Virus record (IMG/VR): IMGVR_UViG_3300031853_000021
Coordinates: 14,689 to 78,688 of that record
Source: a virus
Taxonomy: Duplodnaviria > Caudoviricetes
Reading direction: 5' to 3' (one strand)
Length of the DNA: 64,000 nucleotides
In this document: piece after piece, positions 6,416 to 40,001 of the stretch
Layout: each line of letters starts with the position of its first letter
How positions within the stretch are numbered: the stretch's first letter is position 1
Notes under the pieces: model-generated
What the model saw: the letters and a program-made list of their open reading frames with translations, nothing else
The model's database searches: none
What the model was told of the DNA's origin: nothing
Translations under genes and position numbers: made by a program

Positions 6416-8113
6416 TTCACCCCGCTTTTTACCCGCTCCACAAAGCCGCGGACGGCTGCGCCAGCTCGCGTTACCGGGCGCGTTGTGGCCATACTCGCAC
6501 GCCAGCCCGGCAAGCGCCCCGCTGTCCAAGGACGCGAACCGCCACCGGCAGCGAACCCCGGCGGAGCCGGGACCGCTGAAGGCCGACTTGAAGTAGGTCG
6601 TCGCTGATCCGCCGACCTCTTCCGGGAACAGGACGCCCTTCTTTGTCTTCATGAAGGACTTCACATAGTTCCAGCCGGATTTCATTCCTTCGTACAGCAG
6701 GCCAGTGTCTTCGTAGTTCGATGTCACGGATCCCGCCAGATTCTGACTGTCGCGGCATTCGTAGATCGAATAATCCCAATCAGACACAGCGTTCGCCGTG
6801 ACGGTATAAAGCGGATCCAGGCCGACCGCATATGCGCCGTCCAGGACTTCCACGCCAGCCACACGAAGCGGCGACGTTCCATCCGTCAGCCCGTGCGGGC
6901 ATCCGTCCTTCCTTCCCGGAAGAAGTTCTGTCGCGCCTGAATGCCACGGCATCGTCGAAATGTATGTCGTCGCTGTCGTGGTGAATGCGCTTTCCGTCTC
7001 TATGCCGACCGCTGCCAGTTCGTCGCCGTCGATCGTGACGGTTTCGATGGAACTGATCTTGACCAGATCCAGAATGTTCCGCATGTGTGCCTGTCCTCTG
7101 TCCTTGTTCGTGGACGATCCCATGTCGCCGATTGACACGGTCGAACCGACGATCAGGTTCGCGGCCTGCGTCGTCGACAGGATCACGCGCTTCACATTTT
7201 CTTCTGCCTTCGCTACCTGGTACTGTCTGTCGTAGCTGATGCAGCCGTTCGCGATGTTGCTGTTTTCCAGATCGAAGTGCCGCAGCTGCCACATCCGCAG
7301 GATCCATCTTGTATCGCAGTCATTCCACAGTCCTTCATAGATCGTCATCTTCCGCGCCGCTGTGATGCCTGCGGTCGCGCTGGCGAAGTTGTACGGCCTG
7401 ATGCCTGCGCCGGATGTCAGTGCGCCGCTGCTGTTCAGTCCGCCGGGGAATGAAGGATGCCATGTCAGCGCCCGCTTCGTTCCGTCCGGTGCGACATCCC
7501 CGGCGTCCGGATAGAATCCCGCGCCTTTGGTCGTCCTGAAGCTGATGAAATTGAATGAACCGTCGTTCCATTCCTTGATCCACAATGCCAGCGCGAACGT
7601 CCAGACGGGCGCGTCTTCGCCTGTGATGTCGAAGCCGTCTTCGCCTTCGAAGTATGTGATGTTCATGGTTCCATCTTCCAGGGACATCGCATTCGCCCGG
7701 ATGTACCATGTCATCGGATCTTCGTCCGCCCAATCTTCGACGGCGGCATCGGATGCCGTGCACAGCTGCGCGGCGCTCTTTCCTTCCAGATCGTCCAGCG
7801 GCGTCATCGCCGTGTTTCCGGATACTGCTGCATCATAGCTTCGCAGCGTGTACGCCTTGCTGTTCCACGCCTGCGCCGCTGCTTTTGCGAATCTTTCAAG
7901 GATCTTATATTTGCTTGTCTCTCCTGCTGCCGCTGCGCGCGGATAGAATTCCCAGAAGACGCGCGTGGTGTTCGTTCCGTCCAGGACGCTTTTGCACGCC
8001 GCGTCAAGGACAGCCGCATCAGATGACCCGCCGTTCAGCGCGATCGATTCCAGCGCGGCGGCGATCCGTTCGTGCTGTGTCCACGAAGGGAAAATCAGAT
8101 CCATGTCTGCCAT
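6404..8113 (-). CDS. DGR target protein, putative receptor-binding tail protein with C-terminal CLec-fold variable region
   Basis: VR encodes SAFSGPGSAGVRCRWRFASLDSGALAGLACEYGHNAPGNASWRSRPRL at the C-terminus; follows baseplate genes. Confidence 0.88.
   Translation of the reverse strand: MADMDLIFPSWTQHERIAAALESIALNGGSSDAAVLDAACKSVLDGTNTTRVFWEFYPRAAAAGETSKYKILERFAKAAAQAWNSKAYTLRSYDAAVSGNTAMTPLDDLEGKSAAQLCTASDAAVEDWADEDPMTWYIRANAMSLEDGTMNITYFEGEDGFDITGEDAPVWTFALALWIKEWNDGSFNFISFRTTKGAGFYPDAGDVAPDGTKRALTWHPSFPGGLNSSGALTSGAGIRPYNFASATAGITAARKMTIYEGLWNDCDTRWILRMWQLRHFDLENSNIANGCISYDRQYQVAKAEENVKRVILSTTQAANLIVGSTVSIGDMGSSTNKDRGQAHMRNILDLVKISSIETVTIDGDELAAVGIETESAFTTTATTYISTMPWHSGATELLPGRKDGCPHGLTDGTSPLRVAGVEVLDGAYAVGLDPLYTVTANAVSDWDYSIYECRDSQNLAGSVTSNYEDTGLLYEGMKSGWNYVKSFMKTKKGVLFPEEVGGSATTYFKSAFSGPGSAGVRCRWRFASLDSGALAGLACEYGHNAPGNASWRSRPRLCGAGKKRGEWTS
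6443..6586 (-). repeat. DGR variable repeat (VR), copy 1
   Basis: 16 mismatches to TR, 15 at TR adenines. Confidence 0.95.
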
Positions 8114-28599: not shown

Positions 28600-30272
28600 C
28601 AGTCTTCGTCCTCCAGATCAATCAGTCCCAGCGATTCCGCGTCGTAGATGTCCATGACGCCGATCACGGCGTATCCTTCCCGGATCCCGCTTGACGTGTT
28701 TTCGTCGTCCACGCACGTCACGACGGCCTTCATCCTGTCGCCTGTGGCCTTTCCGTCCTTCATCGCAAGGATCATCAGCCTGTCGCCCTCTCTGTAGCCC
28801 TGCGCGTCCTTCAGGACGATCATGTACTGGATCTGCTGCGTCTCGATCGCGTGATACATGTCAGCAGACACCCGGATGTATCTTTGCGACCTGTCGTCCT
28901 GCTCCCGCTGCCCGTCCTGGCCTTCCTGCATCGCTTCCAGCTTCTTCTTCGTCTCTCTGTCGATCCTGTCCTGCTCTTCGCTGTATCGCTCTTCGTCAGT
29001 CTTCCGTGCTTCCCGGCGGTCGACGAAGCTGTCGCACTTCATGACGTTCGTCTGCTTCTTCATGCAGGCTTCATAATTGTCGCAGGCGTAGCAGATGCTT
29101 TCCTTCGCTTCCGGATGCGCGTCCACTTCCTTCATCGGCGTGAACAGTCCCGCTTCGATCACCTTGTTCACGAATGCCGTCCAGCTGATCATCTTCCGCT
29201 GCACGAATCGTCCTTCGATCTTCACTTTCAGTTTGATCCCATTCGGCGAACAGTTAATGAACGACACCGGATCCGTGTTCGCGCTGAATTCGTTGTAAGA
29301 TCTGCCGAAGTATTCCTTCAGCTGTTCGATCAGGCCGTCCTTCGTTGTCTGGTCTGTGATCTTCAGCCTTGTCCCTCTGCCCGTCACGTCCTGCCATGCC
29401 GCGAAGATCTCTTCGTCCGCAGGATCCTGATCGTGTGCGAAGCGATCCGCTTCCTGCTGATCCGCGTCATCCTCTTCTTCGAAGTCTTCCGGATAGTTCA
29501 TCTGCCCCGGAATCTCTTCCTGTTCTTCAGCCGCTGCCGCTGCCGCTTTCGCTTCCTTGACGTCTTTCCATGTCAGGCTTCCCGTCTCCTTGTAGCGTTC
29601 CAGCATGTCCCGCTGCCGCTCTTCGTCCATCCCGCTGATCTCATAGGCCGCGCTGAACGTCAGACGGCCTTCTTTCAGTTCCTGTGTGAATTCCGGGATC
29701 AGTCGGTTGTTGATGCTCTCGATCTGCGCGATCTTCGTCCCGGTCATGTTCATGATGGACGCGATCACGTCCCGCAGCCTTCCGGAATCCAGCTTGTAGC
29801 CCTGAAGCGTCAGTCCGTTGTCCTTCATGTACTGAAGCGCGGCCTTCAGCTGCTTTTCCTCTTCCAGAACGTCCATCACGGTCTTGTCGCGGTATGCGTT
29901 CGCCATGATCAGCTGCACCGTCTCTTCGTGTTCCTCTGCCGGATTCTTGATCTGGCACGTGGCGACTTCGAATTCCTTGTATCCCAGATTGCACAGCATC
30001 GTCAGCGCCCGCCAGCGCCTTTCGCCTGCGATGATCCTGTATTCGCCCTTCTCGCACGGTGCATATGTGACCGTCATGTTTTCCAGCAGGCCGCACGTCA
30101 GGATGTCCTGCGCCAGCTTCTCGATGTCGGTCATGCTGTAGAAGTTCTTTTCGTTGCTGTACATCTTCCGGATGCTGATGTCCCGCGTCCGGAACCTTGC
30201 TGTCGGCTTATCGTCGACCGCCGCCTTGCTGTTCTTGTTCAGTGCGTCCAGCACGCTCCATCCTGCCGCCAT
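28599..30272 (-). CDS. parB: ParB-family protein with C-terminal Cys cluster and ASCH/DUF3850-like domain
   Basis: YRIIAGERRWRA arginine patch; central HTH region; C-terminal GYREGDRLMI...GIREGYAVIGV. Confidence 0.85.
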   Translation of the reverse strand: MAAGWSVLDALNKNSKAAVDDKPTARFRTRDISIRKMYSNEKNFYSMTDIEKLAQDILTCGLLENMTVTYAPCEKGEYRIIAGERRWRALTMLCNLGYKEFEVATCQIKNPAEEHEETVQLIMANAYRDKTVMDVLEEEKQLKAALQYMKDNGLTLQGYKLDSGRLRDVIASIMNMTGTKIAQIESINNRLIPEFTQELKEGRLTFSAAYEISGMDEERQRDMLERYKETGSLTWKDVKEAKAAAAAAEEQEEIPGQMNYPEDFEEEDDADQQEADRFAHDQDPADEEIFAAWQDVTGRGTRLKITDQTTKDGLIEQLKEYFGRSYNEFSANTDPVSFINCSPNGIKLKVKIEGRFVQRKMISWTAFVNKVIEAGLFTPMKEVDAHPEAKESICYACDNYEACMKKQTNVMKCDSFVDRREARKTDEERYSEEQDRIDRETKKKLEAMQEGQDGQREQDDRSQRYIRVSADMYHAIETQQIQYMIVLKDAQGYREGDRLMILAMKDGKATGDRMKAVVTCVDDENTSSGIREGYAVIGVMDIYDAESLGLIDLEDED

Positions 30273-30551
30273 TTATTCGCCCTCCTTCTTCGGTTCCTGC
30301 CCTCTCTGCCGCATCTCTTCCGCGAAGTACCTGTCATACGCTTCGAACAGTGCGAACGTCGCCGCGAACAGGACTTCCGGCCTGTCCGTCCCGTTGTGGA
30401 ACGTGACGGAATTGTCGGGATTCGCTTCGATCAGGATCCCTTCGTTCACTTCGTGCTGTGTCCCGTCTCCGTACTTCACGATGAAGTCCGTCTTCGACAG
30501 CTTCAGGACATCCTTCGCATTCAGTCTGATCACATTGTCTTCCTGCTGCAT
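30273..30551 (-). CDS. Hypothetical protein
   Basis: In operon between parA and parB. Confidence 0.6.
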   Translation of the reverse strand: MQQEDNVIRLNAKDVLKLSKTDFIVKYGDGTQHEVNEGILIEANPDNSVTFHNGTDRPEVLFAATFALFEAYDRYFAEEMRQRGQEPKKEGE

Positions 30552-30811
30552 TTCTTTTCCTCCTTCCGGGCGCCAGTCAGCGCCCTGTAGATCTCTTTAT
30601 ATTCCTGTTCGTCGTTCCAGATCCTGCTGTCCAGCGTGTCCAGGCGTTTCGTCAGTCTGGTCACGATCTTCGGCGGCAGTTCGTATCCGTTCCGGACGAC
30701 GATCGACATGATTTCGTATTCACTCTTCAGCGTCAGTTCCGACAGGATCTTGATCTGCGTCATCTTGTTGTCTGCCCTGCGGTATGATCCGCAGATCTCT
30801 TTTTCAGTCAT
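30530..30811 (-). CDS. Hypothetical protein
   Basis: MTEKEICGSYRRAD...QIKILSEL; in operon. Confidence 0.6.
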   Translation of the reverse strand: MTEKEICGSYRRADNKMTQIKILSELTLKSEYEIMSIVVRNGYELPPKIVTRLTKRLDTLDSRIWNDEQEYKEIYRALTGARKEEKKCSRKTM

Positions 30812-31601
30812 ATGCCGCGCCGCCTTCCATGTCTTCGATCAGTTCCTGCGTCACGGCCTGATAGTCCTTCGTCACGATGCAGCCTTTTGAAAACTTCGGC
30901 AGCGGCAGGCGCGCGACCGTTGCCTTCTCCGCCTCGATCGACCGTCTGACGGATGTTCTGAAGCAGTCATACCCGGATACGGTCTTCAGCCATTCTTCGA
31001 CCTGAAGCGATGTCTGATTCTTCTGGCGCATGGTCATCAGCACCTTCGTCCGGATCCCGGCATTCAGGCGCCGAAGATCTTCGATCTGCTCGATCGTGTT
31101 TCCGATGCCCTCGATCTCGAATCCTCCGACCTTCGCCGGGATGATCACCAGATCCGACGCGATCAGGACGTTCGTCACGGTCATGTCCATCAGCAGGCCG
31201 CAGTCCACGATGCAATAGTCGTATGCCCCGTTCACTTCCAGCATCGCCGCCGTGAACCTGGCGATCTGGTCGTCCCTCTCCTTCAGCAGCAGATTCATGT
31301 TCGTCCGCATCAGGTATCCGTTCGCCGGGATGATGTCAATGTGTTCGTACGGTGTCGTCCTGATCAGATCCGCCGTGCTGTATGATCCGCCCGTGCTTCT
31401 GTGTCTTTCCAGCAGTTCCGGCATCCCTGCGCCTTCCGGATCGAAGCTGTCGTACAGCATGGACAGGTTCCCCTGCTGATCCGCGTCGACGCACAGGACG
31501 CGCCGCTGCCTTTCCTCTCCCAGAATGTACGCGATCGATGCCGCCGTCATGGTCTTCCCGATCCCGCCTTTCTGGTTCATTACTGATATGATCTTCATCA
31601 T
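30804..31601 (-). CDS. parA: ParA/Soj ATPase
   Basis: NQKGGIGKT deviant Walker A, VDADQQGN, IVDCG. Confidence 0.92.
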   Translation of the reverse strand: MMKIISVMNQKGGIGKTMTAASIAYILGEERQRRVLCVDADQQGNLSMLYDSFDPEGAGMPELLERHRSTGGSYSTADLIRTTPYEHIDIIPANGYLMRTNMNLLLKERDDQIARFTAAMLEVNGAYDYCIVDCGLLMDMTVTNVLIASDLVIIPAKVGGFEIEGIGNTIEQIEDLRRLNAGIRTKVLMTMRQKNQTSLQVEEWLKTVSGYDCFRTSVRRSIEAEKATVARLPLPKFSKGCIVTKDYQAVTQELIEDMEGGAAYD

Positions 31602-31621
31602 GGTGCGTGTGCCCTCCTTCG

Positions 31622-31930
31622 TTATCCTGCGAATATGTCGTAGTACAGCCGCATCTGTAGATCGCTGAAGCTGTACATCGGCGTCATGTCCGGATCCATT
31701 GGCGGCATCAGGCCGCGCTTCTTGTAGTCCTTGTGCGTGATCTCCGGCGTCGCCCTGAAGTCGATGACGTTCCTTTCCAGATCCTGCTGCCGGATCCGCG
31801 CTTTCCCCGTGTCCTGCTTGATTGATGCCGCCCATCCGTCGAAGATCAGCACCTTTTCTTCTCCTTCCTTCCGGAAGATCCGGACGCGATCCGGATTGTG
31901 CAGCACTTCCGTGAACTCTTTCACTGTCAT
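31622..31930 (-). CDS. Hypothetical protein
   Basis: MTVKEFTEVL start after GAAGGAA. Confidence 0.6.
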   Translation of the reverse strand: MTVKEFTEVLHNPDRVRIFRKEGEEKVLIFDGWAASIKQDTGKARIRQQDLERNVIDFRATPEITHKDYKKRGLMPPMDPDMTPMYSFSDLQMRLYYDIFAG

Positions 31931-32382
31931 AATTCCTTCACCTTCCCTTCCTTCACGATCGACAGGTTCGGCACGCGCGGGATGTTTTCGCCCAGTCCCG
32001 TGTTGATCGGTTTCAGTTTCAGATAGTCTTCCAGCACTTTCACCGCCGCTTCCGCTCCGTAGCACACGACGCAGTAGTTGCCGCGTGCCGCTGCCGCTCT
32101 CATGAATTCCTTCTGTGTGTCCTGTATCCTCCCGCTGCCGTACTTCATTTCGATGTACAGCCCGCAGAATCCCGCCTTCGGTACCGGCAGATGAAGATCC
32201 GGCACGCCTGCCTTCACTCCCATCTGCTTCAGTTTCACGGCTTCGGCCTTGTTCCTGCTGCCGCCGTTCGGCACGTGGTGCAGAAGTTCCAGTTCCGGAT
32301 ACCTCTGCATGTTCCACTGTGCCCAGCTGATCACCGCGATCTGTTCCGTATCCTCTGACCGCAGTGCATACTTCAGATTCAT
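31927..32382 (-). CDS. VRR-NUC domain nuclease
   Basis: HVPNGGSR, GVKAGVPDL, YIEMK. Confidence 0.9.
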   Translation of the reverse strand: MNLKYALRSEDTEQIAVISWAQWNMQRYPELELLHHVPNGGSRNKAEAVKLKQMGVKAGVPDLHLPVPKAGFCGLYIEMKYGSGRIQDTQKEFMRAAAARGNYCVVCYGAEAAVKVLEDYLKLKPINTGLGENIPRVPNLSIVKEGKVKEL

Positions 32383-33275
32383 TCCTTGTTCCTCTCTTCC
32401 CACTGCTTCCGCGCCGCTGCCGTCTCTGCCTTCAGTTCTGCCGCGCGCTGCATGATTTCTTCGTTGTATGGATAGTCGTGAATACCACGGCACCACATGT
32501 TTTCGCGTGCGCCTTGCAGGCCGTAGTTGTAGGCCGTCAGCATGTCGGCGACGTTCCCCGTCACTTCATACAGTTCCGCCAGATAGCTGACGCCGACGCG
32601 GATGTTCATGTATGGATTCATCAGATCCGTGCATCGCTCTTTCCGCATCCTGTCCCGATGCCATCTTTCATTGATCTGCATCAGCCCGACCGATTCCCCG
32701 GAATCTCCGATCGCGTCCCACACGCAGCCGCTTTCCTTCTCGATCAGCGCGAAGACTGTTTCATAATCCACGCCCGCATCCCGGCAGACGATGTATGTGT
32801 AGATCTGCGCGATGACCGGGAATTCGCCCCCAGCCTGCTTCGCCGCTGTCGATATGTCGTGATAGTAGAACCCTTCGATGTTGTCCCAGTCCTGTGACAT
32901 CCGGTTCCACGGGTATCCGTAGGATCCGTAGATCTTGCAGCCGTACTTCGCCATCTGGTTCGCGTCGACCTCTTCAGGCGTCATGATCTCCACCGGCTGC
33001 GTCTCTGCTTCCTGGCTTTCTTCCGGTTCCGGTGCTGCTTCCACGACGGACACGTCCTTCGGCTCTCTGAATACTGTGCACGCGATCGCCATCACTCCCT
33101 TCACCAGACCGAACGCGATCAGGACGAAGACTGCCAGCGCCGCCACGATCAGCGCGATCTGCTTCGCTTTCCGGATGATCCGCCTGCGCTGCCGTCTTCT
33201 TCTCGCTTCCTCTGCCTTGCCGTGCGGGATCCTCCGCCCCGTCCTCCTGCTCTGTTCTTCCGTCCTGTGTTCCAT
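32379..33275 (-). CDS. Membrane-anchored lytic transglycosylase (SLT domain)
   Basis: Basic N-terminus + TM helix; ALIEKES, GLMQI, NIRVGVSYL, AYNYG. Confidence 0.85.
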   Translation of the reverse strand: MEHRTEEQSRRTGRRIPHGKAEEARRRRQRRRIIRKAKQIALIVAALAVFVLIAFGLVKGVMAIACTVFREPKDVSVVEAAPEPEESQEAETQPVEIMTPEEVDANQMAKYGCKIYGSYGYPWNRMSQDWDNIEGFYYHDISTAAKQAGGEFPVIAQIYTYIVCRDAGVDYETVFALIEKESGCVWDAIGDSGESVGLMQINERWHRDRMRKERCTDLMNPYMNIRVGVSYLAELYEVTGNVADMLTAYNYGLQGARENMWCRGIHDYPYNEEIMQRAAELKAETAAARKQWEERNKE

Positions 33276-34165
33276 TTCCCTGTCCTTTCCGGCTGTCTGT
33301 GCAGCCTTGCGTTGATGTAGAATCTGCCGTTCACGTCGTTGTATCTGACTTCGGCCTTCGCGAATGTGTATCCCTGCTGTCCGTACCAGTGCGTCATCTT
33401 GTCCCGGATGCAGCTGCTGTCCGCTGCCATTTCCCGGACGTCCTTCGCCTTGAACTTGTAGTGATTCACCTTTTCTTCCGGCTTCTTCAGTCCCTTCGAC
33501 GGTGTCCACTTCTTCTGCGACTTCTTCTTCTTCTCCTTCGTGATGTACTTCGCCATCCCCGTCAGGCCGTCTTCATCCTTGTCCAGGCGCCGCACCTGAT
33601 TCCGTCTTCCCTTTATCCACAGTTCTTCCACAGTGTCCATGTCGATGTCCCCATCCATGACAATATGATGGTGGAACCTTCCTTCCTGCGTTCCCTCTGT
33701 GGTGTAGACATACCTGGCATTCTTCAGGCCGCGCTTCTTCCTCTGGTAGTTCAAGCGCCTGATGTAGTTCTGCATGTTCTTCAGTGCTTCTTCCATCGTG
33801 GCGGGCATGTCTGCGTCCGTGTAGGTGAACGTCGCCCAGATGTCCCTGTCCCCGAAGTTCGCGTTGATCACTCTTTCGCACTGCTTCCTGCTGTTCTTCT
33901 CGTTCAGGTTCCACTGTGCTTTCCGGTGTTTCTCCTTCTGTGCAGCTGTCGGCGGGATCTCTGCCTGCTGCCCTCTGACGAACTCCGGATAGATCTCCAC
34001 TTCCAGCTGATCGCCTGCCCGGATCTCCTTCGTGGCGTACACTGTCGCCTTCCTGCTGCCCTGAAGGATCCTTTGCACCTGATCTTCTTCCAGATCTTCC
34101 AGTGCTTTGTTATAGGCCGCTTCATAGTCGTATTCGATGACGGCCTTCTTCCTTCTCTTTCTCAT
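33149..34165 (-). CDS. HUH-type rolling-circle replication initiator (Rep)
   Basis: WATFTY (motif 1), RFHHHIVM (HUH), AKYITKE (YxxK). Confidence 0.75.
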   Translation of the reverse strand: MRKRRKKAVIEYDYEAAYNKALEDLEEDQVQRILQGSRKATVYATKEIRAGDQLEVEIYPEFVRGQQAEIPPTAAQKEKHRKAQWNLNEKNSRKQCERVINANFGDRDIWATFTYTDADMPATMEEALKNMQNYIRRLNYQRKKRGLKNARYVYTTEGTQEGRFHHHIVMDGDIDMDTVEELWIKGRRNQVRRLDKDEDGLTGMAKYITKEKKKKSQKKWTPSKGLKKPEEKVNHYKFKAKDVREMAADSSCIRDKMTHWYGQQGYTFAKAEVRYNDVNGRFYINARLHRQPERTGKWNTGRKNRAGGRGGGSRTARQRKREEDGSAGGSSGKRSRSR

Positions 34166-34214
34166 GGTGCGGATGCCCTTCCCCTCTCTCTGATCCCTTG
34201 TATATATGGATTCG

Positions 34215-34240
34215 TTGACTTGTTAGTATCCATTACAAGG
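34215..34240. other. Candidate Rep nick site/origin
   Basis: CTTGT-TAGTATCCATT-ACAAG mini inverted repeat 50-75 bp upstream of rep; CTTG|TTA resembles the CTTG|ATA nick context. Confidence 0.3.
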
Positions 34241-34274
34241 ACGCTTCCGGACTGCCGTCCGTCCCGCGTTTTCA

Positions 34275-34303
34275 TTGACTTTTCGGGCATTTTCCGCTAT
34301 CAT
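34275..34303 (+). promoter_or_regulatory. Sigma-A-type promoter antisense to the early operon
   Basis: TTGACT-17bp-TATCAT. Confidence 0.7.
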
Positions 34304-34309
34304 GAATGT

Positions 34310-34398
34310 GGTGCGTGAAGCGGCTTCCGGATGCCCGGAAGAAGCCCAACATGAAGCCTTCAGGATGCCTTGTCCGCTTCCTGAAGGCTTTTCCTTTT
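34310..34398 (+). ncRNA. Candidate countertranscript (about 90 nt) in the rep leader
   Basis: Promoter, then hairpin CTTCCGG/CCGGAAG, then 12-bp stem AAGCCTTCAGGA/TCCTGAAGGCTT followed by TTCCTTTT. Confidence 0.55.
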
Positions 34399-34531
34399 AC
34401 CCTGCTTTCTTCTCCTGCTGGATAGATCTGACGGCCTTCAGCTTCACCTGTGCTTCTCCGCGCTGCGTGATGATCAGTGCGATCGCTCTGAATGCCTTCA
34501 TCGGATCCGGTGCGTCTCTTCTCTCTTTCAT
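34397..34531 (-). CDS. Small hypothetical protein (44 aa), absent from ORF track
   Basis: MKERRDAPDPMKAFRAIALIITQRGEAQVKLK...; GGAGCGGGAAGG upstream. Confidence 0.5.
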   Translation of the reverse strand: MKERRDAPDPMKAFRAIALIITQRGEAQVKLKAVRSIQQEKKAG

Positions 34532-34549
34532 CCTTCCCGCTCCTTTCCG

Positions 34550-34759
34550 TCAATAGTCGTCTTCGATCTGTTCGTCGGCGTCCGTGTAGTATTCGCCGTC
34601 GTATCCCTTCGCCATAACCTTCTGATAGCATTCCCAGCAGACCCGCCGGAACGTGATCCCGTGACAGTCATGTGTGAACAGCATGTCGCTTCGCGGCCTG
34701 ATCCTGTTGCATACCGGGCACAGCCGCATGTCTTCATAGCTTTCCGTCATCTTTGCCAC
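34550..34759 (-). CDS. Small zinc-finger protein
   Basis: CPVC...HDCH...CWEC. Confidence 0.7.
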   Translation of the reverse strand: MAKMTESYEDMRLCPVCNRIRPRSDMLFTHDCHGITFRRVCWECYQKVMAKGYDGEYYTDADEQIEDDY

Positions 34760-35249
34760 CCTCTCCTTCTGCCACTTCCATCAGTTCGTTCTTCACGACT
34801 TGCAGGATCCCGTCGATGAAATCTTCGTGCCTGCTGTGATCCAGCAGTTTGTCGTGGATGTCCTTGTAGATCGGCTTCATCGCCGTCAGCAGAATGTAGA
34901 ACTGTACCACGCCGCCCAGCTGCGCGTTGTCCTTGATCTGCGGTTCGTTCGTCCCCTCCGGAATGTCGATCAGCATCTGGATGTGGTTCTTCTCTATGAA
35001 GTCGTCCATGATCTCCCCGAAGGTATCGATGTTAAGTTCTGCCATTTCGTCCCGTTCCTTTCCTTTGATCTCGATCCATATTCCTTTCACGCCGTCCATC
35101 TCATAGATGAATTCCGTCTCGTACCCCCCCCGACACAGATCTTCATGCACCTGTACGGCGTCGTCTGTATCGCGGCACTTGATCGTGTCGCCCGGCATCA
35201 GTTCGGCCTGCTTATGTGGCTGATTGCAGCCCTGGCTGTAGCATGACAT
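34734..35249 (-). CDS. Hypothetical protein
   Basis: GGAGG RBS; in operon. Confidence 0.55.
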   Translation of the reverse strand: MSCYSQGCNQPHKQAELMPGDTIKCRDTDDAVQVHEDLCRGGYETEFIYEMDGVKGIWIEIKGKERDEMAELNIDTFGEIMDDFIEKNHIQMLIDIPEGTNEPQIKDNAQLGGVVQFYILLTAMKPIYKDIHDKLLDHSRHEDFIDGILQVVKNELMEVAEGEGGKDDGKL

Positions 35250-35475
35250 TGTCGCGCCCTCCTTCCTTCTCTGCGATCAGGCTGTCCTGTATCATTCCGA
35301 TCTGCGCTTCCAGATCGACCTTTGCCTTGTCCAGCAGCACCACGGCCTTGATGACATCCGGTTCCGCCCACGCGATCCCGGACATGGCCTTCTTCGCGGC
35401 ATCGATTGCCGCTGCCTTTCTTGTCGTCCGCTCCGCTGCGATCACCAGATCTTCGAATGTGGTCGCCTTCTTCAT
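35212..35475 (-). CDS. Hypothetical protein
   Basis: In operon; helical. Confidence 0.55.
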   Translation of the reverse strand: MKKATTFEDLVIAAERTTRKAAAIDAAKKAMSGIAWAEPDVIKAVVLLDKAKVDLEAQIGMIQDSLIAEKEGGRDNVMLQPGLQSAT

Positions 35476-35780
35476 GACGCTTCACCGCCTTCCGGACTGA
35501 TCTGGATGTCCAGCGTGTCCACTTCCGGATTCCGCTGCACCTTCACGCCCTTCGCTTCCAGCGCCTGCGTCCATGCTTCTTTCACTTCCGGATCACAGTG
35601 TTCCATCGCATCCGCCCACGAAGGGAAGCGCCCGTGCTGGTCGTAGAACTTGTATTGATACGTCAGGCTGTCCCGGTTGTGCGGCATCCGCGGATCGTGC
35701 TTCACGGCGCACATCGGACAGGTTCCTTCCGGCGTGCGTCCCAGCATCATGATCCCGTGCTTTTCCTGTAAGAATCCCAT
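35472..35780 (-). CDS. Hypothetical protein with Cys/His motif
   Basis: CPMCAVKH...PH...YQYKFY...WADAMEHC. Confidence 0.65.
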   Translation of the reverse strand: MGFLQEKHGIMMLGRTPEGTCPMCAVKHDPRMPHNRDSLTYQYKFYDQHGRFPSWADAMEHCDPEVKEAWTQALEAKGVKVQRNPEVDTLDIQISPEGGEAS

Positions 35781-35794
35781 GCGTCCCGCTCCCT

Positions 35795-36250
35795 TCATTC
35801 GATTTCATACGTCGTCCGGACGACTTCGTTTTCGATGATGTACATGATGTTCGTGATGCTCTGATCTTCGTTTTCATCCGTATGATCCAGAATGTCGACC
35901 GCCACGATGTAGATTTCTTCCGGCGTCGGTTCCTTCTGTTTCACATAGTTCAGCATCTTCGTGTATGCCCGCGTGTCGCCGCGCGTGTAGAAGTTGTGAT
36001 TGATGCACATGTGCATGATGTCTTCCATGTCCCACCGTCTGATCACTTTGATCTTCGGTGCTTCCGTCGTTCTCTTTGTGTAGATAGCCATTTCTTCGTC
36101 CACTCCTTTGAATAGCTGCCCTGTAAATCCGCCGCCCTTGTACACCGTGCAGACCAGCTTCCCGTCCTCGATGTGGAATCTGAACGCCGGGATCCTGATC
36201 TGCGGGATCTGTATCTTCGGGATCGGCGGGATCGTGGGCTGTCTGATCAT
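35795..36250 (-). CDS. Hypothetical protein with Ile-Pro-rich N-terminus
   Basis: PTIPPIPKIQIPQIRIP; start overlaps the upstream stop codon. Confidence 0.55.
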   Translation of the reverse strand: MIRQPTIPPIPKIQIPQIRIPAFRFHIEDGKLVCTVYKGGGFTGQLFKGVDEEMAIYTKRTTEAPKIKVIRRWDMEDIMHMCINHNFYTRGDTRAYTKMLNYVKQKEPTPEEIYIVAVDILDHTDENEDQSITNIMYIIENEVVRTTYEIE

Positions 36251-36480
36251 ATGCCTGCGACCTCTCCGACGATGTCGCTGATGTTGTCCAGGTCGTCCGC
36301 TGCGTTTTCCAGATCTCCGATGAATCCTTCCATCTCTTCGCCGCGTTCAGATCCCTGAAGCGATTCCGGCATATTGTCGAAGGCTTCCTGTTCTTCTTCC
36401 TTGACCTCTTCGATGATCTCTTTCGCGGATGCGATCATGTCGACCGCTTCCGCCAGTCTCTTCCGCCTTGCTGCATTCAT
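36247..36480 (-). CDS. Hypothetical acidic protein
   Basis: MNAARRKRL...EEEQEAFDNMPESLQGSERG; AAAGGAGG RBS. Confidence 0.65.
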   Translation of the reverse strand: MNAARRKRLAEAVDMIASAKEIIEEVKEEEQEAFDNMPESLQGSERGEEMEGFIGDLENAADDLDNISDIVGEVAGI

Positions 36481-36493
36481 GCCCGTCCCTCCT

Positions 36494-36871
36494 TTAGAAC
36501 ACGTCGTCTTCCATGATCGCGACATCCCAGATCACGATGTCTTCATATGCGCCCGTCTGAAGCATCGGCTTCGTGATGTTCAGCTGCGCCATCTTCAGCG
36601 CCTGGTCGATCGTGTCTGCCGCGATCGTTGCTTCTGCTTCCTGCACGCTTCCGTTTCTGTACAGCATCGAATAGCTGATCTTCCAGTGCTTCGTGTTCAG
36701 GCTGTCCGCCAGTGCCTGCGCTTCTTCATCCGTTTCGAAGAAGCCCGGCTTGTACTCTCTGTTCCCTGCGTGATCCGGTTCCGTGACATCCAGCTGTCTG
36801 TAGACCTGAATCAGCTTTTCGCCGCCTGCGTAGTTATGTGATACTTTCCATTTGCCTTTCATTTCGTCCAT
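36494..36871 (-). CDS. Hypothetical protein
   Basis: AAAGGA RBS; in operon. Confidence 0.55.
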   Translation of the reverse strand: MDEMKGKWKVSHNYAGGEKLIQVYRQLDVTEPDHAGNREYKPGFFETDEEAQALADSLNTKHWKISYSMLYRNGSVQEAEATIAADTIDQALKMAQLNITKPMLQTGAYEDIVIWDVAIMEDDVF

Positions 36872-36920
36872 CCTTTCATGATTCAGCCTGCGCCGCTGCC
36901 GACGCAGGCCGTGTCGATCG

Positions 36921-37082
36921 TCATGCAGTCTTCACTTTTAGCTGATCGCGCATGATCTGCATTCCGATCATGATTCCTTTGACTTCTCTTTTCTCTTCTG
37001 CGGTCAGTCTCTTCAGCAGTTCCACGAACTCCTTCACATCGGCCTGCTGGTTCTCGACTTCCCTGTTCTTTTCTGCTGTCAT
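36921..37082 (-). CDS. Small early protein (53 aa), absent from ORF track
   Basis: MTAEKNREVENQQADVKEFVELLKRLTAEEKREVKGIMIGM...; AAAGGAG RBS. Confidence 0.6.
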   Translation of the reverse strand: MTAEKNREVENQQADVKEFVELLKRLTAEEKREVKGIMIGMQIMRDQLKVKTA

Positions 37083-37099
37083 CTCCTTCACTCCTTTCT

Positions 37100-37372
37100 T
37101 TAGATCGTTGCGATGATCATCACCAGCAGCATCACGATCGCCAATCCCATGACGATGTGTTCCATCACTGTCAGGCTGTCCGATTCCATGATGTCGTCAT
37201 CGTCATCGATCAGCATGTTCGCCGCTTCGTTGATCTCTTCTGTTACGACCGCGATTTCTTCCGGCGTCAGCTGCATGGATTCAAACACGATCGCGCATCT
37301 GTTCTTCGCAGTGTCGATCCGGTCGCGGTCTGTCATCGGCTGCGGCTCCTGCCGCGCTTCCAGAACTGTCAT
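37100..37372 (-). CDS. First early gene: acidic protein with C-terminal TM helix
   Basis: AAAGGAAGG RBS; DDDDD run; hydrophobic C-terminus. Confidence 0.55.
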   Translation of the reverse strand: MTVLEARQEPQPMTDRDRIDTAKNRCAIVFESMQLTPEEIAVVTEEINEAANMLIDDDDDIMESDSLTVMEHIVMGLAIVMLLVMIIATI

Positions 37373-37411
37373 CTGATCACCTTCCTTTCCTTTCCTGAAT
37401 CGAATTTTCAT

Positions 37412-37488
37412 TTGATCCTGTCAATATAATACTTGATTGAATCAAGTTTGTCAACCACTTCAGCATATAAAACTTGACTGAATCAATT
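37412..37488. promoter_or_regulatory. Three operator-like TTGA-N5-TCAA sites
   Basis: 37412-37424; perfect 17-bp palindrome ACTTGATTGAATCAAGT at 37431-37447; 37472-37488. Confidence 0.75.
37426..37454 (-). promoter_or_regulatory. Early (lytic) promoter
   Basis: TTGACA-17bp-TATTAT; the perfect operator covers the spacer. Confidence 0.8.
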
Positions 37489-37502
37489 TTTTAATGTAGG
37501 AT
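37474..37502 (+). promoter_or_regulatory. Repressor promoter
   Basis: TTGACT-17bp-TAGGAT; an operator overlaps the -35. Confidence 0.6.
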
Positions 37503-37527
37503 ATAATTCAGGAAGGAGGAACGGCGC

Positions 37528-38007
37528 ATGAACAGCAGATTAAAAGACATTCGGAAGGCTCTTCGCCTTACGCAAAAAGAATTCGCTGCACGATTAGGAA
37601 TCACCGACAGCGGGATTTCCAGACTTGAAAAAGGACAGAACCAGCTGACGGATCAGCTGATCCGCGCGATCTGCCGCGAATACAAAGTGAACTATGAATA
37701 TCTGAAGAACGGCATCGGCGAAATGTTTTCGGATGTGCCGCAGACAGTCGTCGATGAACTGTGTGAACAGTACGATCTGGATGACTTCGATCGGATCATG
37801 CTTCAGGAATATCTGAAGATGGACGAAGCGTCCCGGAATGTTCTGAAGACTTACATCCGGAAGATCTGCGGGCAGATCTCCGAAGCCGAAGACACGCAGG
37901 CGAAGATCGACGCTGAAGTCGAAGCGTACCGGCAGGAACTGGAACTTGAAGCAAGTCAGGCGGAAAAATCATCAGCTTCCGACACGCCTGCCGAAAATAT
38001 GGCATAA
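37528..38007 (+). CDS. XRE-family HTH phage repressor (CI-like)
   Basis: RLKDIRKALRLTQKEFAARLGITDSGISRLEKG; divergent from early operon; AGGAGG RBS. Confidence 0.9.
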   Translation: MNSRLKDIRKALRLTQKEFAARLGITDSGISRLEKGQNQLTDQLIRAICREYKVNYEYLKNGIGEMFSDVPQTVVDELCEQYDLDDFDRIMLQEYLKMDEASRNVLKTYIRKICGQISEAEDTQAKIDAEVEAYRQELELEASQAEKSSASDTPAENMA

Positions 38008-38033
38008 AAATAAGCCCGTCAAGATGACGGGCT
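38005..38033 (-). terminator. Hairpin with U-tract on the minus strand
   Basis: AGCCCGTCA-AGA-TGACGGGCT preceded by AAAAATA on the plus strand. Confidence 0.55.
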
Positions 38034-38039
38034 GGAAGG

Positions 38040-38378
38040 ATGGACACTATGGCATTATTTGAAAGTAAAGAAAGCAAAGAAGAAAAGAAAGCGCGGAAGA
38101 TCGCCGAAGCTGAACAGAAGCAGGCCGAAAAAGACTTCGCACTTCTTCAGAAGTACGGCCTTACAGGTCTTCAGGATCCTGAAGACATCCAGTCCGTGCG
38201 GAACATTGTCAGCGAACTGCGCGGAACCGGCCTGATGGAATTAGGCATCACGTTCGGCGGCGGCAACGACCGCGACATCCAGAAGAATCAGCTGTACTAC
38301 CAGCGCGCGATCCTTGAACAGAACTTCATCATCATTCGTCAGCTTGACAGGATTTCGAAGCTGCTGTCCGATCGCTGA
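38040..38378 (+). CDS. Lysogeny-module hypothetical protein
   Basis: Between repressor and integrase, co-oriented. Confidence 0.7.
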   Translation: MDTMALFESKESKEEKKARKIAEAEQKQAEKDFALLQKYGLTGLQDPEDIQSVRNIVSELRGTGLMELGITFGGGNDRDIQKNQLYYQRAILEQNFIIIRQLDRISKLLSDR

Positions 38379-38387
38379 TCGTAAAGC

Positions 38388-38470
38388 AAAAATAAAAGGA
38401 TCAGCTGTTCCCGCAGCTGATCCCCTGATTTCCCTATCCGCACCGCTTCGTGGTAGAAATAGGCTTCGCA
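38388..38470 (-). ncRNA. Candidate antisense sRNA (about 80 nt) upstream of integrase
   Basis: Extended -10 TG-A-TAGAAT at 38477-38485; first hairpin; terminator GGATCAGCTG/CAGCTGATCC + TTTTATTTTT. Confidence 0.5.
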
Positions 38471-38533
38471 CCTCTCATTCTATCACGGAACCGTGCGACT
38501 GCATAGGTTTCTTTTTTATACTCTTTTTTAGGA

Positions 38534-39940
38534 ATGGAAGGTGATCTGATGTATATGACACAGTCAGCCCCGGAACTGTACGGCGTCCGCGTCGTCAAAT
38601 ACATCCGGTGCAGCCACGACGATCAGGTTCTTCACGGCGACACGCTGGAAGCGCAGAACGAAATACTGGACGACTTCATCGCCCGGAATCACTGCGTCCT
38701 GATCGACACGTTCATCGACGAAGCACTGACCGCCCGGAAGAAATACACGAACCGGAAGGAATTCGTCCGGCTCCTTGACGGCGTCCGGCGGCATGACTTC
38801 GACGTGATCCTGTTCACGAAGCTGGATCGCTGGTTCAGGAATATCGGCGACTATCACAAAATACAGGAAGTTCTGGAAGCGAACGGCGTCCAATGGAAGG
38901 CCGTGACGGAATCGTACGACACGACCACGACGAACGGCAGGCTGCACATCAACATTCGTCTGTCCGTGGCACAGGATGAATGTGATCGTGACAGCGACCG
39001 CATCAAGGACGTGTTCGCGTTCAAGCTGAAGAACAAGTCCTTCGTGACCGGATCCGTCCCGCGCGGTCTGATGCTCGACGCCGAAAAACATGTCGTCCCC
39101 GATCCGGAATGGAAGCAGTTCGCGCTGGATGCCTTCGACATGCTGGAAGTGACCGGATCCGTCCGGAAGTCCCTTTTCGCTCTACAGGAACGGTACAGCT
39201 GCATCTATTCGTACAGCAGCTTCATCCGGATGCTGAAGAATCCGCTGTACAAGGGAATGTATCGTGACGATCCGCAGTTCTGCGATCCTCTGATAGATCC
39301 GGATCGCTTCGACCACATCCAGACGCTGATCAAGAAAAACGTGCGCCAGCGCCGAAGCGGAACGCAGTTCATCTTCAGCGGTCTTTTGACCTGTGACGTC
39401 TGCGGTCGCTCTATCGCAGGATATACGACAGGCCGTCGCCGGAAGGATGGATCCATTACCCGGAAGCCGCGGTACAGATGCACAGCGTGGAACATGAACC
39501 ACAGCTGCACGAATAACAAGTCGTGGATGGAAGAAGTCCTTGAAGATCGCGTCCTGGCTCTTGTTCGCCCGTCCCTCTCCGCATACATCGCGGACTATGA
39601 TGTGGAAGACGGCGGCGGTCGCGGCAGGAATCCGGCAGCTGATGCCGCCCGGATCCGGACGAAGCTGAAGAAGCTGTACGACCTGTTCATGGACGATCTG
39701 ATCGACCGCGATCTGTACAAGTCCGAATACGATCAGCTGAATGCGCAGCTTCAGGAAGCGCTGACTGCTGCCGATCATCCCCGGAAGGACGTCAGCGAAC
39801 TGAAGAAGTTCCTGTCGCAGCCGTGGGAAGATGTGTACAAGGACTTTTCCGTGCAAGAAAAAAATGCGTTCTGGAAGTCCTTCGTGGACACCATGCGCAT
39901 TCGTGAAGACGGCAGCATCGCCGACATTATTTTTTTATGA
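38534..39940 (+). CDS. Large serine recombinase (integrase)
   Basis: YIRCS catalytic motif, TKLDRWFRN, recombinase domain, zinc ribbon CDVCG...YRC...C, coiled coil. Confidence 0.93.
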   Translation: MEGDLMYMTQSAPELYGVRVVKYIRCSHDDQVLHGDTLEAQNEILDDFIARNHCVLIDTFIDEALTARKKYTNRKEFVRLLDGVRRHDFDVILFTKLDRWFRNIGDYHKIQEVLEANGVQWKAVTESYDTTTTNGRLHINIRLSVAQDECDRDSDRIKDVFAFKLKNKSFVTGSVPRGLMLDAEKHVVPDPEWKQFALDAFDMLEVTGSVRKSLFALQERYSCIYSYSSFIRMLKNPLYKGMYRDDPQFCDPLIDPDRFDHIQTLIKKNVRQRRSGTQFIFSGLLTCDVCGRSIAGYTTGRRRKDGSITRKPRYRCTAWNMNHSCTNNKSWMEEVLEDRVLALVRPSLSAYIADYDVEDGGGRGRNPAADAARIRTKLKKLYDLFMDDLIDRDLYKSEYDQLNAQLQEALTAADHPRKDVSELKKFLSQPWEDVYKDFSVQEKNAFWKSFVDTMRIREDGSIADIIFL

Positions 39941-39944
39941 TAAT

Positions 39945-39994
39945 GATGCACCTAATTCAGCGTTGCCCGAAGGTGACGCCGAATTAGGTACATC
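39945..39994. other. 50-bp imperfect palindrome: attP-like site and/or terminator
   Basis: 23-bp arms (4 transition mismatches) around CGAA, 4 bp after the integrase stop; followed by T6. Confidence 0.55.
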
Positions 39995-40001
39995 TTTTTT
40001 C

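Follow-up and report, generated by a model that had tools for sequence, protein, structure and literature searches.

Antisense control of the replication initiator Rep is textbook biology for small plasmids. In the rolling-circle plasmids of the Rep_trans type, the 87-nucleotide (nt) RNAI of pT181 is an antisense RNA directed against the rep leader and follows a pre-emptor logic, i.e., a leader segment lying in the target of the RNA can pair, in competition, with the 5' arm of a helix further downstream in which the ribosome-binding site (RBS) lies (PMC5703833). For the staphylococcal theta plasmids of the RepA_N type, the RNAI of pSK41 is a countertranscript of ~83 nt with two stem-loops, the binding of which is proposed to induce an RBS-sequestering structure without transcription termination (PMC5703833). 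In pMV158, the antisense RNAII and the protein CopG act together; the Rep concerned is of the rolling-circle type and shares its transcript with an upstream gene, and the RNA limits Rep translation (PMC5717011; PMC5703833). Among temperate phages, the activity of pO in lambda lowers pR transcription and influences replication (PMC3985674), while the prophage replication of extrachromosomal mycobacteriophages is RNA-based, a non-coding RNA being reported as needed for initiation and the phages lacking an initiator protein (PMC7157519). The present analysis concerns a 64,000-nt stretch of DNA (hereafter the window; positions 14,689 to 78,688 of the IMG/VR record IMGVR_UViG_3300031853_000021) from a tailed temperate phage of gut or rumen Clostridia with a 39-kb replicon, where a small RNA gene is predicted at about 34310-34398 on the plus strand, opposite the leader of a gene for a rolling-circle Rep. 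Comparison with related loci argues that this feature is real, namely a widely conserved and as yet unannotated small antisense transcription unit that is tied to the rolling-circle cassette of temperate Firmicutes phages. On balance, we regard it as probable that the RNA would serve as a negative, dose-dependent brake on Rep, acting through a leader switch between a pre-emptor, an element able to pair with the translation initiation region (anti-TIR) and the translation initiation region (TIR) of rep itself.

The sequence-only reading of this DNA had proposed that a near-consensus promoter, TTGACT-17-TATCAT, opposes the early operon from within a rep leader of about 230 bp and drives an RNA of about 90 nt, with two hairpins sharing the loop start AUGC and with a final stem followed by a U-rich tail. 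Both features are indeed there: the promoter lies in a 231-bp gap, facing the minus-strand genes, and the RNA that it predicts is of ~88 nt, with a 13-pair terminator. The parts of the unit, and the gene whose leader it opposes, are as follows.

34275-34303, plus strand: small-RNA promoter, with a -35 TTGACT at 34275-34280, a 17-bp spacer and a -10 TATCAT at 34298-34303 (10/12 matches)
34310-34398, plus strand: predicted antisense RNA of ~88 nt, devoid of an open reading frame (ORF), its predicted start and end placed to about +/-3 nt
34324-34341, plus strand: hairpin 1, 7 pairs, loop AUGC
34353-34399, plus strand: hairpin 2, i.e., an intrinsic terminator of 13 pairs (34353-34391; -23.5 kcal/mol) with a U-rich tail
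33149-34165, minus strand: rep, encoding an HUH rolling-circle initiator of 338 amino acids (aa) (PF23343 at 2e-11; phrog_3584 at 1e-77)

As such, the unit has the general make-up of a countertranscript, namely an ORF-less unit with a promoter and an intrinsic terminator of its own, opposite the leader of the rep mRNA. The plus-strand RNA 34308-34400 (93 nt) folds at -40.2 kcal/mol (z -4.5), a stability reached by 0 of 200 shuffled sequences. Twelve of the pairs in hairpin 2 are Watson-Crick and one is G-U, the loop region, which begins with GAUGC, holds GGAUGCC (34354-34360), and the stem is followed by UCCUUUU; since the reverse complement is without a U-run, the terminator is predicted to be active for plus-strand transcription only. 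Between the unit and rep, no sense sigma-A promoter of comparable quality was found, the best sense scores being 6.5-8.5 vs 9-13 in the antisense direction, and visual checking of the same interval gave weak candidates only. A peptide encoded by the small RNA was considered and rejected, as there is no conserved ORF or RBS. No Rfam family was matched over the unit by cmscan (window 30000-40000 and 11 related loci; E <= 1), the families of countertranscript RNAs (ctRNAs) included, and blastn with 33100-34800 gave no match in phage and plasmid collections, the relatives being found at the protein level only. Regarding Rep itself, the HUH motif reads RFHHHIV here and RWHHHIV in most relatives, the Tyr motif GMAKYITK is invariant or nearly so, and H165-H167 and Y207 are invariant in alignment A1; the protein thereby presents the HUH and catalytic Tyr motifs that characterise initiators of the pC194/phiX174 type.

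The set of Rep relatives comprised 16 loci found in IMG/VR and 70 found in a collection with one genome per prokaryote species, the latter including Lachnospiraceae, other Clostridia, Peptostreptococcaceae, Paenibacillus, Cohnella, Tepidibacter, Enterococcus and Latilactobacillus, with Rep identities ranging from 65% down to ~30%. A unit occurs at the same place and on the same strand in 55 of the 68 non-redundant related loci, to be compared with a background, established by the same criteria, of 14 units in 394,756 strand-bases elsewhere in the loci, i.e., 0.0075 per equivalent stretch (binomial 4e-104). The promoters of the relatives have the 17-bp spacing, often with TTGACT or TTGACA and TATAAT, or are TG-extended, and are followed by a hairpin and T-run; the predicted RNAs measure 52-93 nt, with bodies differing in sequence between clades. 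Co-variation in the rep leaders of relatives, which the sequence-only reading had named as a way to check the proposal, was looked for and found: the stems co-vary and, in one clade (alignment A2), the terminator stem shows 9/9 pairs with compensatory changes, while CUGAC, a motif of the loop, does not vary. The upstream gene ends close to the unit, its stop codon lying at most a few nt from the small-RNA 3' end, and this gene varies among relatives while the unit stays; therefore, the RNA, a conserved box lying between the unit and rep (described below) and rep travel together as a cassette. In the window, the upstream gene is the following.

34397-34531, minus strand: ORF of 44 aa, the stop codon of which abuts the small-RNA 3' end; no match to Pfam (including the ribbon-helix-helix, RHH, families) or PHROG

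This ORF is kept upstream of the unit in only a subset of relatives (L009-L014, L020), other genes being present elsewhere. A contig covering it reaches a depth of 813 in one rumen RNA library, and the phage of that contig differs further upstream.

Cultured phages also carry the unit, in gaps left unannotated, namely Clostridium perfringens phiSM101 and PhiS63 and Terrisporobacter TPDSL_ph2, so that the prediction is directly testable. Of these, phiSM101 is described as an episomal prophage (PMC3442830). Records of ~38 kb from C. perfringens, filed as plasmids, encode the same Rep family, and the relatives bearing the unit further include prophages in contigs of 230 kb to 1 Mb. Two observations concern particular relatives. 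In the L021-L024 clade, the box and the unit stand further upstream, ~550 nt from the Rep match, and the interval holds an additional open frame of ~159 codons. In L025, plus-strand positions 1583-1655, in the early region of a Clostridiales prophage, match Hammerhead_II (RF02276) weakly, with 32.7 bits vs a gathering score of 37 (E 0.009).

The proposed mode of action rests on three elements of the rep leader, here given as they are read on the sense strand.

34312-34346, minus strand: element I (pre-emptor), inside the small-RNA target and able to pair with element II, from folding and co-variation
34284-34305, minus strand: element II (anti-TIR), UCAUG-AUA-GCGGA-AAA-UGCCCG, which is the sense-RNA copy of the -10 and spacer of the small-RNA promoter
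34162-34187, minus strand: TIR of rep, with a purine-rich Shine-Dalgarno sequence (GAGGGGAAGG), element III GGGCAUCCGCACCAUGA (34178-34162) and the start codon at 34165-34163

In the window, elements II and III pair as UCAUG/GCGGA/UGCCC with GGGCA/UCCGC/CAUGA, i.e., by 5+5+5 pairs that cover the start codon, and this helix is present in the minimum free energy fold of the leader. Over 36 non-redundant loci, cognate II:III pairing is stronger than non-cognate pairing (mean z -1.52, Wilcoxon p 2.5e-4), with a rank <=0.05 in 14 of the 36, including distant loci of Paenibacillus and Cohnella, and the same holds for I:II (mean z -1.76, p 3e-8). When the sense RNA of the window is folded stepwise, I:II forms until the TIR is transcribed (nascent RNA down to 34180), after which II:III forms, at -95.2 vs -86.0 kcal/mol with the TIR kept open; with the small-RNA target masked, II:III is favoured by 15 kcal/mol in the window leader. 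The loops of the small RNA show a further relation to the TIR. In hairpin 1, CGGAUGCCC (34328-34336) is complementary over 9 nt to the TIR sequence GGGCAUCCG at positions -13..-4, which is the best match in 774 nt of sense sequence. Such complementarity between a loop and the TIR is found in five independent clades, with different sequences and ending each time within a few nt of the start codon; the match extends over 11 nt in L025 (at -11..0), 9 nt in L028 and 7-8 nt in L026, L029, L039, L010, L041 and L061.

From the I:II, II:III and loop:TIR findings taken together, a mechanism by removal of a pre-emptor appears the most likely. What the analysis shows are the sequence features, with their conservation and co-variation, whereas the transcription of the small RNA, its binding and its effect on Rep are what we infer. 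The promoter upstream of rep, strong and probably constitutive, would produce a non-coding RNA of ~88 nt, with two hairpins and its own terminator, which would end right at the stop codon of the preceding gene and would be fully complementary to the early-operon leader carrying rep. In a nascent sense transcript that the small RNA has not met, element I would pair with element II, leaving the rep start open and Rep translated. Once bound by the small RNA, the nascent leader would have element I taken, element II would close on element III, and Rep would not be translated. Here and in several clades, the loops of the small RNA may in addition make direct pairs with the region of the rep start. 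A stretch of ~110 nt is looped out by the II:III helix, after which comes coding sequence (AUGAGAAAGAG) and no U-run; the probable nick site of the origin would also lie in this loop, and the two following elements would belong to that origin.

34219-34239, minus strand: conserved box CTTGTAATGGATACTAACAAG (sense strand), probable Rep nick region of the double-strand origin (dso), its core conserved in relatives
34240-34268, minus strand: G+C-rich hairpin directly 5' of the box, probably part of the double-strand origin, abutting the box in most relatives with differing sequences

Of the 88 sources scanned (the 86 related loci and the two phage-like units of the contig to which the window belongs), 83 have the core of the box, CTTGTAATnGrTAnTAA, upstream of rep and on the sense strand, down to a Rep identity of 30%. 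It lies mostly 40-120 nt upstream of rep, the distance from box to start codon ranging from 33 to 169 nt, and is placed between the small-RNA unit and rep; the copy of L001 is at 7284-7308. A replicon of the pC194/phiX174 type would be expected to have a conserved nick sequence of the CTTG|ATA type near rep, and the box is similar to the RepH origin of pC194, which PMC7072734 gives as TCTTGATAATAAGGGTAAC. Because the box is conserved to 30% Rep identity, is fixed in strand and is abutted by the hairpin, it is probably the nick site or nick region of a double-strand origin. The hairpin next to the box was also considered as an attenuator and rejected in this role, only CUUGUAAU following it, with no U-run, and a 9-nt repeat, TCCGGAAGC, common to hairpin and leader in the window, proved not to be general among relatives. 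Around the origin, the -35 hexamer TTGACT (34275-34281, plus strand) recurs beside the box (34215-34221, plus strand), so that in the sense strand AAGTCAA flanks the origin hairpin on both sides, and this pairing of TTGACT around the origin is seen in several relatives. These AAGTCAA repeats could be binding sites for Rep, which would then occlude the small-RNA promoter. In phiSM101 (L088, ~2295-2330), the terminator hairpin of the small RNA holds a second near-copy of the origin box (GTTACTAGATATTAAC vs CTTGTACTAGATATTAAC).

The neighbourhood of a probable nick site raises the question of whether the unit might be a lagging-strand (minus-strand) origin instead, i.e., whether its RNA would prime the synthesis of the complementary strand, as at the minus origin of filamentous phages or at a single-strand origin (sso). 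The RNA would start ~70 nt upstream of the probable nick box and run away from it, on the strand complementary to the one that would be displaced; the Rep falls in PF23343, a family also containing the gene II proteins of filamentous phages, and sso elements are orientation-specific and found near the dso (PMC5703833). The promoter, though, is an ordinary duplex promoter (-35, 17 bp, -10) and not the folded single-stranded DNA that serves as promoter in ssoA and in filamentous minus origins, where the primer is not released by a terminator; here, a strong intrinsic terminator would release the RNA and leave no hybrid for priming, and the complementarity to the rep start region would go unexplained. 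We therefore consider a priming role very unlikely.

Several points weigh against the unit as a brake acting through the leader switch. A unit was not detectable in 13 of the 68 non-redundant relatives. In the window leader, thermodynamics favours II:III even when no small RNA is present, so that the switch must be kinetic, and a crude equilibrium test, in which the small-RNA target was masked over 36 loci, gave a mean change in TIR accessibility of -0.02 (p 0.12, not significant). Direct pairing of the small RNA with the TIR is rejected as a universal mechanism, being found in the five clades only and absent in many relatives. In the window, scanning with the promoter pattern alone performs at chance level, with 2 sites per 3 kb vs 1.4 expected, and the case for the unit therefore rests on the comparison with relatives. 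Repeated motifs, too, could in principle be protein-binding sites on DNA. In its full form, this last possibility supposes that the signals act at the DNA level or are fortuitous: Rep or some other protein would use the inverted repeats as operators or as parts of the origin, and the promoter-like and terminator-like sites would yield no functional RNA. It agrees with the chance frequency of promoter-like sites, with the repeated motifs of 7-11 nt flanking the probable origin and with the presence of AAGTCAA both at the -35 and beside the box. It does not account for the hexamers spaced by 17 bp and followed 50-95 nt downstream by a one-directional terminator, kept in the 55 diverged loci out of 68, for terminator stems that maintain their pairing by compensatory changes, or for a downstream repeat that tracks the start codon and not the box despite a box-to-start distance varying from 33 to 169 nt; we give it hardly any credence.

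As to transcription, metatranscriptome runs from rumen and gut contain the phage, in the form of unstranded contigs; these RNA-library contigs have neither strand nor local depth and may include DNA. At the predicted borders of the RNA, two studies have contigs ending at 34312 and 34313, and two contigs end at 34402, one of them with adapter sequence; this coincidence is at most a weak hint. Three of the four runs have no contig across about 34314-34401, and one run bridges 34008-34413; as the contigs are without strand and local depth, neither the gap nor the bridge can tell whether the RNA is made.

The sense transcript has a likely source upstream, in a region with the following features.

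37426-37454, minus strand: probable early promoter TTGACA-17-TATTAT (11/12 matches)
37528-38007, plus strand: gene for a CI-like helix-turn-helix (HTH) protein, divergent from the early promoter
38534-39940, plus strand: gene for a serine recombinase (serine integrase)

The minus strand carries nearly all genes and, in the sense direction, the order is the early promoter, small early ORFs, the 231-bp gap (34166-34396) and rep, followed downstream by genes for an SLT-domain protein, ParA and a ParB-like protein. Since the early promoter is present, ~3 kb upstream of the unit, and no minus-strand terminator-like site was found between it and 34400, this promoter is the likely source of a sense transcript over the rep leader. 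At 37426-37502, promoter-like sites stand back to back between a cro-like and the CI-like gene, namely TTGACA-17-TATTAT on the minus strand and TTGACT-17-TAGGAT on the plus strand; they are probably the lysogeny switch.

Such convergent transcription, if it occurs, brings in another explanation, according to which the unit would act by transcriptional interference together with RNase III cleavage of the sense:antisense duplex, uncoupling rep and the origin from early read-through, with the leader helices as secondary features. In its favour, the early operon runs towards a near-consensus promoter and meets no sense terminator on the way, the duplex would be perfect over 88 bp, the contig ends at 34312/34313 and 34402 fall on its predicted borders (a weak hint only, as above), and there is a precedent in lambda, where the convergent pO lowers pR transcription, which passes through ori-lambda, and affects replication (PMC3985674). 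It leaves unexplained the co-variation of elements I, II and III as well as the loop matches to the rep start in several clades. We consider it unlikely as the principal mode of action; interference and the leader switch are not exclusive and would be compatible with each other.

The window (1-64000) is part of a single contig of 78,688 bp (G000:C1 1-78688), which is made of two diverged phage-like units (A and B) of ~38.7 kb each, in tandem and with 65-85% identity. The rep of unit B recurs in identical form in a separate IMG/VR contig of 39,110 bp. The two-unit contig could represent tandem prophages, or it could have arisen in the assembly, by joining at an identical segment common to both. 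In the homologous gap of unit A, the small-RNA unit (L001 7356-7474) has its parts in the same order and orientation, namely a promoter TTGCAT-17-TATCAT, then a hairpin that differs from the one described above, and then a 14-pair terminator, also different, with a T-rich tail. In this same unit A, the terminator loop and 3' arm of the small RNA (L001 7433-7464) match 10 nt and 8 nt of early repA, in codons +52..+82 (L001 about 7052-7082), a match that is borderline for chance.

That two related phages share one contig with different small-RNA bodies could suggest that the main target of the small RNA lies elsewhere, in a host mRNA or in a competing related phage, the RNA then being an immunity or incompatibility factor. 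The cross-duplexes reach ~-63 vs ~-190 kcal/mol for the cognate ones, and incompatibility in plasmids is defined by antisense RNAs (PMC5717011). The RNA bodies of the two units are, however, 65% identical, to be compared with 70-74% for rep, and are thus no more diverged; hypervariability of the small RNA between units A and B was rejected on this ground, the difference being unexceptional. Moreover, the unit always accompanies the box and rep while the upstream gene varies, and co-variation ties the small RNA to its own leader and TIR. A main target elsewhere is, as such, very improbable.

The sequence-only reading had also seen in the RNA a copy-number control for an extrachromosomal prophage state. 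Because many of the relatives bearing the unit lie in large chromosomal contigs, a general brake on Rep synthesis is the better description. In a phage that carries ParA, a ParB-like protein, an HUH Rep and a serine recombinase, this brake could set the copy number in a plasmid state, or it could stop an integrated prophage from firing its origin. A wider proposal is offered tentatively, and we would call it possible rather than probable: small RNA, origin and rep may together be a self-contained and portable module for replication, used by temperate phages and phage-plasmids in Clostridia and Bacilli, with the nick site in the loop of the regulatory helix, one stretch of DNA doubling as promoter and anti-TIR, and the small RNA setting incompatibility so that units A and B can co-reside.

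No paper or Rfam family was found that describes antisense control of Rep in tailed temperate phages with an HUH Rep. Within the replication module, no other non-coding feature is as conserved as this unit across a wide family, which includes phages of gut and rumen Lachnospiraceae, phiSM101, the ~38-kb "plasmids" of C. perfringens and prophages of Paenibacillus, Cohnella, Tepidibacter, Enterococcus and Latilactobacillus. If the proposal is true, it would explain how, in integrated and plasmid-like lysogens alike, a rolling-circle initiator is held silent or rate-limited; the unit would serve as a ready marker when origins are annotated in such phages, and it would offer a compact origin-plus-control cassette for vectors in anaerobes that are hard to engineer.

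With respect to the known systems, the likening of the unit to the countertranscripts of rolling-circle plasmids holds in part. An antisense unit most likely limiting Rep stands, on the 55 of 68 loci and on co-variation, as judged in silico, while the resemblance to pMV158 and the transcription attenuation of the pT181 type are both given up. As regards pMV158, the 44-aa ORF does occupy a copG-like position. RNAII, though, is encoded just upstream of the repB RBS, whereas the phage RNA gene lies 145 nt away from the start codon, with a TIR at 34162-34187 that is reached only by the loop matches of 7-11 nt; the upstream ORF was rejected as a CopG-like partner, as it matches neither RHH nor any other Pfam family and as its position is taken by unrelated genes in relatives. 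The distance of 145 nt and the lack of a conserved CopG-like partner thus rule against a pMV158-like arrangement. As regards pT181, the three-element layout I/II/III is also found, in silico, in the phage leader. The stem-loop induced in pT181 is a rho-independent terminator and acts mainly on transcription, whereas the phage helix ends in the start codon, with no U-run and with ~110 nt, the origin included, looped out, hence the rejection of a pT181-type transcription attenuator; the Rep families also differ, and the phage unit has no match to an Rfam ctRNA.

On the side of phages, a non-coding RNA at the replication region is shared with those extrachromosomal mycobacteriophages that are temperate and carry parABS (PMC7157519). 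A Rep protein is present here, however, and the RNA of the phage is most likely inhibitory. In position, lambda pO/oop is the nearest phage analogue, with a short, terminated antisense RNA of a temperate phage that is convergent with the early transcript just upstream of a replication gene. In lambda, oop and the 3' end of cII overlap, cII control is what oop is mainly known for, and initiation is of the O/P theta type. The RNA predicted here, by contrast, would stop at the stop codon of a variable gene and co-varies with the start of rep, which encodes an HUH protein and not O/P.

The nearest working analogue of the phage unit is, by analogy of parts, the RNAI of pSK41. In both cases, an RNA of similar size, ~88 nt in the phage as predicted, has two stem-loops and would act on translation at a distance, its target lying ~100 nt or more upstream of the TIR and ending here 145 nt before the AUG (34310 vs 34165), with a co-varying anti-TIR:TIR helix in the phage leader as a possible counterpart of the sequestering structure. 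The differences lie in (i) the initiator, an HUH rolling-circle Rep (PF23343/phrog_3584) and not RepA_N, (ii) the replicon, which is that of a tailed temperate phage, (iii) the probable origin, placed between the RNA target and the TIR in the loop of the helix, and (iv) the anti-TIR, which in the phage is an RNA copy of the small RNA's own promoter, the two systems having no sequence similarity.

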